Shown piece after piece: positions 28,682 to 35,104 of a DNA stretch of 35,113 nucleotides. This DNA comes from a virus. Its lineage: Duplodnaviria > Caudoviricetes. The notes beneath the pieces are model-generated. The model saw only the letters and a program-made list of their open reading frames with translations. It ran no database searches and was not told where the DNA came from. Within the stretch, counting starts at the first letter, position 1. Each line of letters begins with the position of its first letter. Where the stretch lies: positions 1-35,113 of IMG/VR virus record IMGVR_UViG_3300032318_001756; one strand, 5' to 3'. The position numbers and the translations under genes are program-made.

Positions 28682-28690
28682 TGATATTAT

Positions 28691-28720
28691 AGAGAGCTCT
28701 ATAACAGGGCTCTCTTTTGT
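28691..28720 (+). terminator. Terminator-like hairpin overlapping P1 of twister 1
   Basis: AGAGAGCTCT-ATAAC-AGGGCTCTCT-TTTGT. Confidence 0.7.
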
Positions 28721-28932
28721 TAATGCGTCATTCCTGTTTCCCAAGGACAGGCAATTGTAATAGTAAACCTTCTCAGTAAACTGTATGTACACAGGTGCAC
28801 ATCTGATGTACACAGTGTGGGGTAATGCTATTCTCGTAATAGAAATACAAAACGGAGTTTATAACTCTAAACTGGGTTAGGAAGTGATTCCTTATAACCA
28901 ATTACTATTACAATTGAACGCAGAGGGGCAAA
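28716..28932 (+). ncRNA. Twister ribozyme (type P1) with ~135-nt structured insert in P5
   Basis: P1 UUUGU/GCAAA; U|AA at 28721-23; P2 UGCG/CGCA; UC available to pair with GG of the loop UCCCAAGG; P4 CCUGU/ACAGG; perfect 15-bp P5 28752-28766/28902-28916; conserved GAGGG at 28923-27. Confidence 0.85.
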
Positions 28933-28958
28933 TGTCCTCAGCATGACGTTAAACTGCT

Positions 28959-29265
28959 GAATTTCTAATGCACCATTCTCATGTGGATATGAAGACTTCT
29001 TAGAAAAACAAGCAGAAATGCCTCTGTAGGGAGATGTAAAATAACCGTTGAAGAAACGCCCCTAAGATGTGAAACCACCTGATTAACCAAGCCCTGAGCG
29101 TGAGTATATAACCGTTGGCACCTAGTTAATCAGCTCCCAAGGATGAGACAGTTGTAATGTGTAATGTATTAAGCCAAGTCATGCTTGTATTGAACATTGT
29201 GTTCCACATTAACAAGGTAATACCTTGAGTCTTTACCATTACAACTGAGTGCAGAGGGGAAATTT
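28959..29265 (+). ncRNA. Second twister-like ribozyme with inserts beside L4 and in P5
   Basis: P1 GAAUUUC/GAAAUUU; U|AA at 28966-68; P2 UGCA/UGCA; CC to pair with GG of UCCCAAGG (29135-42); P4 UCUCAU/AUGAGA; perfect 11-bp P5 29149-59/29237-47; GAGGG at 29254-58. Confidence 0.75.
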
Positions 29266-29270
29266 TCTTT

Positions 29271-29365
29271 ATGCATATTGTAACATCAGGGCTCTGTTTC
29301 CTGTCTATGAAGTTTTGCAGAATTGCAAAATGGAGAGAAAGCAATAAAATTGTTACAATGTGCAT
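29271..29365 (+). ncRNA. Unassigned structured RNA element
   Basis: 15-bp closing stem ATGCATATTGTAACA/TGTTACAATGTGCAT enclosing CAGG/CCTG and TTTTGCA-GAAT-TGCAAAA hairpins. Confidence 0.5.
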
Positions 29366-29373
29366 TTAGGAAT

Positions 29374-29413
29374 AGGCTACATATTAGGAGAAATTCTAAT
29401 GTGTAGCCTTTTT
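29374..29413 (+). terminator. Strong terminator closing the ncRNA locus
   Basis: AGGCTACATATTAGGA-GAAA-TTCTAATGTGTAGCCT followed by a T run. Confidence 0.85.
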
Positions 29414-29642
29414 ATTTTGTCATTTATTATTAACCATAAACCGAAAAACATGGAAGGCGTAATTAACCTTTTACTTAGTAGGATGGACTAATCCGTGAAG
29501 CGCAAGTATCTCCATTTGGACCTTTCAACGCGAATATCACCTCTATTGTTTCTTTTTTTGTCACCCTTTAAATAATTGTTTTATGCCATTAGGTATGGAA
29601 AGTGACATTTATGACTATATGTTCTAAATTAAAACCTATAAA

Positions 29643-30049: not shown

Positions 30050-30790
30050 ATGAGAATTATTACACATGATGGAATGTTCCATGCAGATGAGATTTTCGCT
30101 ATCGCTCTTCTGCATGAGGTAATTGAGAATTGTCCTGTTGAGAGAACAAGAAACATCTCAGCAGTGGACTATACAGACAATGATGTATGGATAGTGGATG
30201 TTGGTGGCATCTATGATCCAGAGAAGAATCTTTTTGATCACCACCATGACAAATCTCTGCATGCATCTTGTATATTAGTGCTTAATGAGTTGATGAATCG
30301 CAATCTCATTAGCATGCATTTGTATGAGGAGTTGTACAAAAACTTTCATACCATCTCCCAGATTGATTGTAATGGCTTTCTTGCTGTTAATGGTTTTCAG
30401 GTGAATAGCCTTGTAAAATCATTCAATAGCTTGCCTGATGGGTTTAATATTGCCCTTGAACTAGCTAAATGCTATATTAAGGCTGCAATTGACACTGTTA
30501 ACAAGATTGCAGAGAGTGAGGAGATATGGGAAAGAGGTGAGGACATTAGTAGATACATTAAGTTGTGTGATGCTTTCCCAATTCATTGGAAGAGATACAA
30601 TGATCACATGTTCCTCATCTATCCTAATAGTGGTAAGTGGAATCTCTTAAGCATTGACAGTGAGAATTTTCCTATTGTGTCTAATGAAGCACATGAATTC
30701 CTTCATAATGGGAAATTCATTGCTGTATATGCCAATAAGGAAGATGCCATTGCCTCTGCTCAATTGTCTGCAATGATAGTAGTGGGGTAA
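30050..30790 (+). CDS. MYG1-family (UPF0160, DHH-like) nuclease/phosphodiesterase
   Basis: ITHDGMFHADE, VERTR and VDVGGIYDPEKNLFDHHH signature motifs of MYG1. Confidence 0.85.
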   Translation: MRIITHDGMFHADEIFAIALLHEVIENCPVERTRNISAVDYTDNDVWIVDVGGIYDPEKNLFDHHHDKSLHASCILVLNELMNRNLISMHLYEELYKNFHTISQIDCNGFLAVNGFQVNSLVKSFNSLPDGFNIALELAKCYIKAAIDTVNKIAESEEIWERGEDISRYIKLCDAFPIHWKRYNDHMFLIYPNSGKWNLLSIDSENFPIVSNEAHEFLHNGKFIAVYANKEDAIASAQLSAMIVVG

Positions 30791-34876: not shown

Positions 34877-34982
34877 AGTCAGGTGGCGAAAGCTATTGGT
34901 AAAGTGATGATTGATTGGAAGACATTAAGTTGACACCCATTCAATATGTAACTTAATACAGGTTCGAATCCTGTCCTGACTA
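34877..34982 (+). tRNA. tRNA-like RNA with intact acceptor stem and T-arm but no identifiable anticodon arm
   Basis: AGTCAGG/CCTGACT 7-bp acceptor stem plus discriminator A, TGGCG after the stem, ACAGG-TTCGAAT-CCTGT T-arm; 106 nt; no encoded CCA. Confidence 0.7.
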
Positions 34983-35002
34983 CAAACGAGTAAATAAAAG
35001 TT

Positions 35003-35104
35003 ATGAGGAATGAAAAGTATTGGAATGGGTTTTTACTAGGATTCTTTATTGGTGGGATAATTGGTATAATAATACTCCATTTAGTACAAAGGGGAATTTT
35101 ATAA
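35003..35104 (+). CDS. Small membrane peptide (33 aa; not in track)
   Basis: MRNEKYWNGFLLGFFIGGIIGIIILHLVQRGIL with GxxxG repeats. Confidence 0.55.
   Translation: MRNEKYWNGFLLGFFIGGIIGIIILHLVQRGIL

Follow-up and report, generated by a model that had tools for sequence, protein, structure and literature searches.

A conserved two-arm insertion at the top of P4 in a twister-like RNA family of phages

Introduction

What becomes of a twister ribozyme when two folded arms are inserted next to its catalytic loop? The question is raised by a stretch of viral DNA (the window, 35,113 nt in full; IMG/VR record IMGVR_UViG_3300032318_001756) that carries two twister-like elements in tandem, with no clear gene between them. 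Twister 1 is plain. Twister 2 was noted, in a reading made from the sequence alone, to have 151 nt (28983–29133) between helix P4 and the catalytic loop L4 with all core nucleotides intact, which suggested either a new twister architecture or an allosteric or inactivated ribozyme.

The type-P1 twister ribozyme reportedly goes back to Roth et al. in 2014. It corresponds to Rfam RF03160 and is described in PMC5408937, PMC6154101 and PMC11662667, with the rice Osa-1-4 twister in PMC5113685. Stem-loops P0, P3 and P5 occur as auxiliary elements (PMC11662667), and they are the only optional stems named in the relevant sections of PMC5408937, PMC6154101, PMC6765202 and PMC8501958. A survey of natural twisters reports about 94% to be active, with tolerance of imperfect P1, P2 and P4, of changes at L4 positions 1 and 9, of long P3 arms (over 50 nt) and of P5; every P5-bearing twister tested cleaved well, and lower cleavage went with the presence of a P0 hairpin or with pseudoknot defects (PMC11662667). 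The P1 stem has been reported as dispensable (PMC5408937). No paper on a twister with arms at P4 or L4 was found in the largely open-access literature searched. Why phages carry self-cleaving ribozymes is an open question (PMC6765202).

Methods

A pattern joining L4 to the P5 stem, which is blind to the insert, returned 119 viral loci with plain and inserted forms. Further searches used the D1 5' motif, the D1–D2 junction, the 3' core and the P4'–P5 junction. A regular-expression parser resolved 89 distinct inserted copies including the window's (the first set), 83 of them with the 3' end in view. For the second set, from metagenome contigs, 73 of 103 distinct matches were parsed, of which 57 were new. 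For the core counts, 7 mis-parsed copies and 6 without a 3' end were dropped from the 89, leaving 76.

Core positions are numbered after the rice twister (PMC5113685). A core was scored as intact if it had both As after the cut site, C14, a 7-nt L4 ending in AAG, G45, A46, three T1 pairs and a paired P2.

Architecture of the inserted form

The insertion is real. Every motif named in the sequence-only reading is present in the window (Table 1), and the same insertion point, with D1 and D2 always at the top of P4, is found in 146 distinct copies, the window's included (89 in the first set and 57 further ones). Relatives without the insert also exist, and 144 such plain copies were parsed. Of 83 distinct matches to the D1 5' motif, inspected by eye, 80 come immediately after the 5' half of a twister-type element (the exceptions being L121, L162 and L188). 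The motif is therefore part of the twister RNA rather than free-standing, and its conservation in this place shows that the insert is not a chance occurrence.

Table 1. Features of the tandem twister region and its neighbour
Feature	Position	Strand	Remarks
Terminator-like hairpin, P0 position of twister 1	28691–28715	+	Similar hairpins before other copies
Twister 1, no insert, long P5	28716–28932	+	Predicted cut between 28721 and 28722
Small hairpin in P0 position, directly upstream of twister 2	28939–28959	+	From the fold; recurring hairpin type in the twister family
Whole twister 2 (inserted)	28959–29265	+
P1 5' strand (28959–28965) and L1 U-A-A	28959–28968	+	Predicted cleavage between U28966 and A28967
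P2 5' strand UGCAC and C28974	28969–28974	+	UGCAC pairs with 29249–29253; C28974 is the T2 partner of G29141
P4 5' strand CUCAU	28978–28982	+	Pairs across the insert with 29143–29147; extendable by U28977–A29148 (UCUCAU, 28977–28982)
Arm D1	28983–29078	+	Stem GUGG (28983–28986)/CCAC (29075–29078); conserved A-rich internal loop; stem UCUUAG (28998–29003)/CUAAGA (29062–29067); variable structured tip
Arm D2	29079–29133	+	Stem CUGAUUAAC (29079–29087)/GUUAAUCAG (29125–29133); variable tip
C29134, loop L4, G29142, P4 3' strand	29134–29148	+	L4 UCCCAAG (29135–29141), with G29142 UCCCAAGG (29135–29142); P4 3' strand AUGAG(A) (AUGAGA, 29143–29148)
P5 arm	29149–29247	+	Variable tip
P2 3' strand GUGCA, G29254, A29255, GGG (29256–29258), P1 3' strand	29249–29265	+	GGG is the T1 partner of the L4 CCC
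Long hairpin (29264–29372) and terminator-like hairpin (29374–29409)	29264–29415	+	Downstream of twister 2
MYG1-like exonuclease domain gene of the phage	30050–30790	+	PF03690, E 1e-17

The two arms occupy 151 nt together, with a single C (29134) between them and UCCC. In the minimum-energy fold of 28959–29266, P1 (7 pairs), P2, P4 with its long-range pairing, the two arms and P5 are all formed, and 1 of 100 shuffles does as well (z -2.2). The insert alone is modestly stable (z -1.75; 6 of 200 shuffles), so that folding energy by itself is weak evidence, and the comparison between copies is more informative. Distal P4 has all five pairs in 78 of 86 copies of the first set and 50 of 57 of the second, and its pairing follows every change in the 3' strand, with variants such as CUAUC/GAUAG, CUACA/UGUAG and CUCUU/AAGAG. 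There is covariation support across copies for the P2 and P4 stems, and the base stems of D1 and D2 also covary; the pairs of highest mutual information are those of the proposed helices, as judged against shuffles that ignore relatedness. P1 is weak family-wide, pairs 2–4 scoring just above all shuffles and pairs 1 and 5 not. These observations bear out the proposal of a new twister architecture: across the 146 copies, the site of insertion, the stems of D1 and D2 and the long-range P4 are all conserved and show compensatory changes.

The covarying 5' strand of P4 is upstream of the insert, which does not lie between the 5' strands of T2 and P4, and L4 is closed not by an uninterrupted P4 hairpin but across the two arms. 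A local P4, which would turn the insert into a canonical P3, can be drawn in the window as UCAGC/GAUGA with 4 of 5 pairs. Forcing it there costs 7 kcal/mol, it ignores the changes in the P4 3' strand, and the best such alternative has 5 of 5 pairs in none of 86 copies. Two loci, L057 and L763, have a hairpin in the canonical P3 position as well as the insert. Since P4 covaries across the insert, and since these loci carry both, the insert is not a P3.

One detail of the original placement needs refinement. Position 23, immediately before UCCC, is U in 144 of 144 plain copies, but among 86 inserted ones it is C in 75. Together with the base that follows AAG, it makes C-G in 71, U-A in 8, C.A in 4 and U.G in 3 of the 86 copies of the first set, and C-G in 51, C.A in 3, U.G in 3 and U-A in none of the 57 of the second. 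The insert is indeed at the top of P4, but if C29134 pairs with G29142, as it may, P4 has one pair above the arms, which would then sit within the helix and not between P4 and L4. That L4 is closed by such a lone pair, on top of a four-way junction, is plausible, though not established. The arms run GU...AG; an intron-like reading was rejected because clean removal would leave C at position 23, which is found in 0 of 144 plain copies.

Rfam does not recognise this family. At the gathering score nothing was found in the window, and at E<=10 no ribozyme was found in the region or in the insert. Scans of the window, region, insert and 35 related loci gave no twister, pistol, hammerhead, hairpin or Flavo-1 match in the element, with one hatchet and some tRNAs elsewhere in the loci. 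RF03160 (twister-P1) did not match even the plain copies, including those with a short P5. Rfam thus misses an abundant phage family of twister-like RNAs in both its plain and its inserted form.

In G001, the closest relative of the window (head proteins 94% identical), the corresponding region contains an inserted copy whose arm tips are unrelated. The 3'-core pattern occurs in one to three copies in 4 of 5 records examined; 4 of those 5 have a relative of the window's head protein, and a complete 345-kb record has none. By eye, about two dozen matches to the short D1–D2 junction pattern in viral contigs were due to chance. A scan of bacterial genomes gave mostly chance matches, with a real element in 4 of 120 loci; all four were in contigs of unknown provenance, so no host is inferred.

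The catalytic core

The element resembles the type-P1 twister in its order, P1-L1(UAA, cut after U)-P2-T2-P4-L4(UCCCAAG)-P4'-P5-P2'-GAGGG-P1', in a T1 pseudoknot with covariation, in the C14-G30 pair, and in its optional P0, P3 and P5. The sequence NAA is found in L1 in 82 of 89 inserted copies, the window having U28966, A28967 and A28968. The 3' strand of P2 is followed by G in 78 of 79 and by A in 79 of 79 (G29254, A29255 and GGG in the window). G29254 (G45) is the predicted general base, by its position in the rice twister structure. Cleavage of twister 2 is predicted between U28966 and A28967, by analogy with the U-A cleavage site of twister (PMC5408937).

As the sequence-only reading had it, the window copy keeps its core nucleotides. 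Across the family, the core is intact in 67 of 76 and in 40 of 43 inserted copies, against 123 of 133 plain ones (Fisher p 0.32 for the first set against the plain copies). Because a copy is parsed only if part of its core is present, these are upper estimates, more inflated for the plain copies. In a subset of equal ascertainment, using a pattern that touches no catalytic base, the figures are 12 of 15 inserted and 52 of 59 plain (p 0.41). The core is thus intact about as often as in plain copies, which argues against inactivation, both for the window copy and for most others. The T1 pair 27–47 is C-G in 68, U-A in 4, A-U in 1 and unpaired in 3 of 76 inserted copies, and A-U in 8 of 133 plain ones, so that compensatory T1 pairs occur in both forms.

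On the basis of these comparisons, we consider it probable, though by no means certain, that the insert is a peripheral two-arm addition at the top of P4, and that twister 2 is an active variant of the type-P1 twister that would cut between 28966 and 28967.

An alternative that we think unlikely is that the inserted form, or the whole family, cuts very slowly or no longer at all, and that the RNA serves as a folded scaffold that displays the variable arms or protects RNA ends. One argument for it comes from T2. The C14-G30 pair is kept, and a second pair, C28973–G29142, is possible in the window. However, position 13 covaries perfectly with position 40 in the inserted copies (C-G 65 and U-A 11 of 76) and is mismatched with position 31 (C.A) in 8 of 76, which points to five pairs in P2 and only one in T2. 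A rice twister with the A40C change, believed to lengthen P2 at the expense of T2, has a relative activity of 0.09 (PMC5113685). In addition, position 31 is A in 12 of 80 inserted and 0 of 106 plain copies, which are not independent, and P4 is predicted with a probability above 0.5 in only 21 of 75 inserted copies (0.68 for the window copy) against 116 of 131 plain ones, by a model without pseudoknots.

The cleavage site is missing from some inserted copies, for example L099, L107, L192, L218 and L243, and by eye 14 of 116 matches are rod-like hairpin derivatives that are non-catalytic, lacking either L4 or the cut site (L452, L456, L465, L466, L472, L501, L512, L517 (two), L520, L523, L530 and L547 (two)). 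These keep P2, P5 and usually a short P4-like hairpin; the 5' end is paired directly with GAGGG, and some have compensatory changes. The scaffold can therefore persist without catalysis. The window copy, however, is unlike these derivatives, which show what catalytic loss looks like, and A7, A8, C14, G30, G45, A46 and T1, with its compensatory changes, are kept in 107 of 119 inserted copies. This favours the active variant over the scaffold.

The arms and their tips

In the inserted copies D1 is 52–200 nt long and D2 14–167 nt, the whole insert being 98–289 nt. P5 is always present and long (50–148 nt). The base stem of D1 is GUGG/CCAC in 54 of 89 copies and GUAG/CUAC in 34 of 89. In its internal loop the sequence RAAA is kept on the 3' strand, and the 5' strand is variable and tolerates deletions. 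The loop would probably make a tertiary contact that helps the split P4/L4 fold. Given the variable 5' strand, and given that D1 is reduced to a bare hairpin in L112, any such role is not essential.

The tips are a different matter. The 383 tips fall into 311 clusters; the D1 tips form 75 clusters and the D2 tips 72. Among pairs of inserted copies that share tips, 28 of 32 have only one of the three in common. The window is a good example: its D1 tip is nearly identical in L191; its D2 is identical in L232, the D1 and P5 of which differ; and its P5 is 99% identical to that of a plain twister (L078) and of another inserted copy (L779). The tips nevertheless remain structured. Across 41 homologous tip pairs, each counted both ways, double compensatory changes number 18 where simulation gives 3.9, and broken pairs 51 where it gives 90.8. 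Of 119 D1 loops, 11 are GNRA, against 1.0 in shuffles. Some arm tips, in L014 and L100, contain a hairpin like the T-arm of tRNA (GGGUUCAAUUCCC).

The pattern suggests that recombination between phages has its crossovers in the conserved stems and so swaps the tips; for single copies, there is some residual chance of assembly error at short repeats.

These observations bear on the proposal of an allosteric switch, here taken to mean that the insert is a regulatory domain in which a ligand, a protein or a register shift of one base pair gates cleavage. In its favour, the insert lies next to the catalytic loop, an internal loop is conserved in D1, and position 23 differs between the two forms as described above. 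The registers considered were 13–31 with 23 and 40 free, and 13–40 with 23–31, and both are possible in most copies including the window's. The 23–31 covariation of the first set (U-A in 8 of 86) was, however, not replicated in the second (0 of 57). Moreover, the arm interiors are unrelated between phages: no 5-mer is common to more than about a quarter of the D1 or D2 clusters, and neither a conserved switch pairing nor an aptamer-like loop was found in the arms of the inserted copies. A 6-nt match between insert and core is present in only 8–14 of 76 copies, with no conserved insert–core pairing, and the D1 loop tolerates deletions on its 5' strand. A hairpin between C13-C14-A15 and GUGG that would sequester C14 fails in all 33 of the GUAG/GUUAG copies scored. 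An 8-nt complementarity between the P0 hairpin (28940–28947) and the P5 tip (29178–29185) was also discarded as a mechanism, since the same P5 tip occurs in L002 and L078 behind different upstream sequence. We therefore find no positive support for the switch, and regard a regulatory insert as distinctly improbable. The glmS ribozyme-riboswitch is a precedent for ligand-controlled self-cleaving RNA (PMC6765202); unlike for glmS, no consistent downstream metabolic gene was seen for the phage form, the window's neighbours being unannotated small ORFs and the MYG1-like gene, and no conserved switching pairing was found.

Endonuclease genes within the elements

Some of the twister elements contain genes for GIY-YIG endonucleases (PF01541), which are above the Pfam cut-off in 5 of 5 tested. 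They were seen in L164 (1184–2010, +), L167, L282, L026, L332, L320 and L720, and are around 175 aa long where complete. The leaders of these ORFs pair back on L4 or on the 5' half of the ribozyme, and the 3' half follows the ORF where visible. Among the loci there are 8 distinct ORFs of this kind: 6 come after a 5' half, without an intervening 3' core, and 5 have the 3' half after them. Break points are at the P4/L4 region.

It could be, then, that the insert spread mainly by breaking the DNA target of homing endonucleases that invade the ribozyme genes, and that its only role in the RNA is to be tolerated. The presence of the genes and the location of the break points fit this idea. Against it, 4 of 6 split copies already carry the insert, which thus confers no general immunity, and such an escape would need neither two conserved stems nor a conserved internal loop. 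We consider it very unlikely. The embedded endonucleases could promote recombination of the tips.

Least credible of all, and largely refuted, is a nested ribozyme, a P3 with a local P4, or an assembly chimera: we see a likeness between the window's D2 tip and a strand of the pistol ribozyme, and between the D1 loop and either domain 2 of the hammerhead or loop B of the hairpin ribozyme, and the conserved junctions are repeats of 25–35 nt that could mislead assemblers, but the pistol-like letters are within variable tips, the other look-alikes are in variable tips or themselves vary, the tips have no conserved partner loop, the Rfam scans and the P3 evidence are as given above, and one assembled contig of public run X2 (from the same study as a possible source) spans 28903–29322 with no difference.

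Proposed mechanism and relation to known twisters

In the preferred reading, that of an active variant, comparison of the copies indicates that P4 would close across the insert into a junction with D1 and D2. P2, P5 and the T1 pseudoknot keep compensatory changes, and the catalytic positions are conserved. The tips of D1, D2 and P5 appear to be exchanged one slot at a time, with the hairpins kept, presumably through recombination across the conserved stems. Cleavage by the two ribozymes would divide a non-coding transcript located at the head of the + strand arm of small genes. This transcript would lie between two terminator-like hairpins, which is weak evidence alone (4 such hairpins were found in the region against 1.9 expected). 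The predicted pieces are about 245 nt (28722–28966) and about 450 nt (28967 to the terminator-like hairpin), and each would start with a 5'-OH and a folded ribozyme body.

The phage element is predicted to work like a type-P1 twister, but we place it outside RF03160 on account of the interrupted P4/L4 hairpin, the lack of an Rfam score and the possibly single-pair T2. It differs from the type-P1 twister in its two conserved arms inside or at the top of P4, in an extra nucleotide before UCCC, and in a P2 of five covarying pairs with an uncertain second T2 pair. The long P5 of every inserted copy also contrasts with annotated twisters, 1% of which have a P5 according to PMC6154101. Like twisters that bear P0, P3 or P5, the phage form has long variable arms on an intact core. 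The arms of those twisters leave from L2 or sit upstream, with none from P4 or L4 in the relevant part of PMC11662667, whereas in the phage form the sequence of the arm stems is conserved and a P3 can occur as well. A further parallel is with the T-variant twisters of Schistosoma, natural variants outside the original consensus that were shown to be active; these belong to a retrotransposon, and what sets them apart is P1 and how many As L1 contains, not arms at P4 (as described in PMC8501958). Plain members of the phage family could be among the tested twisters in the supplement of PMC11662667.

If the predicted cutting is true, the twister fold can be extended next to its catalytic loop, at a site that the relevant sections of the reviews and of the activity survey do not describe as tolerating a stem. 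The T2 register may also be shifted, in a way predicted to be harmful from structural work on the rice twister. The site would be a natural insertion point for ribozyme engineering, and twister 1 is the natural comparison construct for twister 2.

More tentatively, and with only a modest chance of being right, the twister could be a self-releasing display chassis, with D1, D2 and P5 as slots for a large library of recombining structured tips, which self-cleavage would free as discrete early non-coding RNAs, for example as decoys for host RNA-binding or defence proteins. Tip recombination through the conserved stems would possibly be driven by homing endonucleases with a cut site at this junction. 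Phage twisters would then do more than cut, and the persistence of rod-like copies without a catalytic core would be accounted for. The tandem plain and inserted copies are a ready-made pair for asking if cleavage yields non-coding RNAs and if the swapped tips have any importance.

Genomic setting

The window is a fragment of the genome of an uncultured crAss-like phage. Its minus strand carries major head, portal and terminase genes; among the best-matching annotated relatives of the terminase are those of Leptolyngbya phage Lbo-JY46 (40%), Cellulophaga phi17:2 (31%) and gut crAss-like phages (around 27%). Both twisters are within a stretch with no recognised gene (28682–29642), not far from where a + strand arm of small ORFs, most of them unannotated, begins. 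A promoter scan was at chance level (8 vs 10.9), and blastn of 28690–29400 against annotated phage records gave a single 34-nt match, also at chance level. RNA-labelled public runs, searched as assembled contigs, which cannot show ends or expression, contained just short pieces of relatives.

Twister 1 belongs to this uncatalogued family as one of its plain members, and its P5 tip of 145 nt is partly common to L425. In a related strain in run X2, 526 other bases replace 27 just upstream of it (window 28687–28715), so that this slot is also variable. The small hairpin upstream of twister 2 (AGCAUG...AAACUGCU, 28939–28959) recurs upstream of many copies and elsewhere in these phage regions; a regular expression for this type matched upstream of 4 of 87 inserted and 6 of 142 plain copies, and there was no Rfam match to the hairpin. 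The pair of hairpins downstream of twister 2 has a 96% copy in L724 (152–297), which also has an inserted twister, and the base of the long hairpin is loosely like P2 and P5 of the twister family. The hatchet ribozyme mentioned above is in L002 (384–516, +; RF02678, 78 bits), about 1 kb upstream of a plain and an inserted twister. Finally, a short sequence at 34955–35016, possibly a repeated early-region signal, has three similar stretches in L693 (G005), some 4–5 kb from the twisters of that locus.
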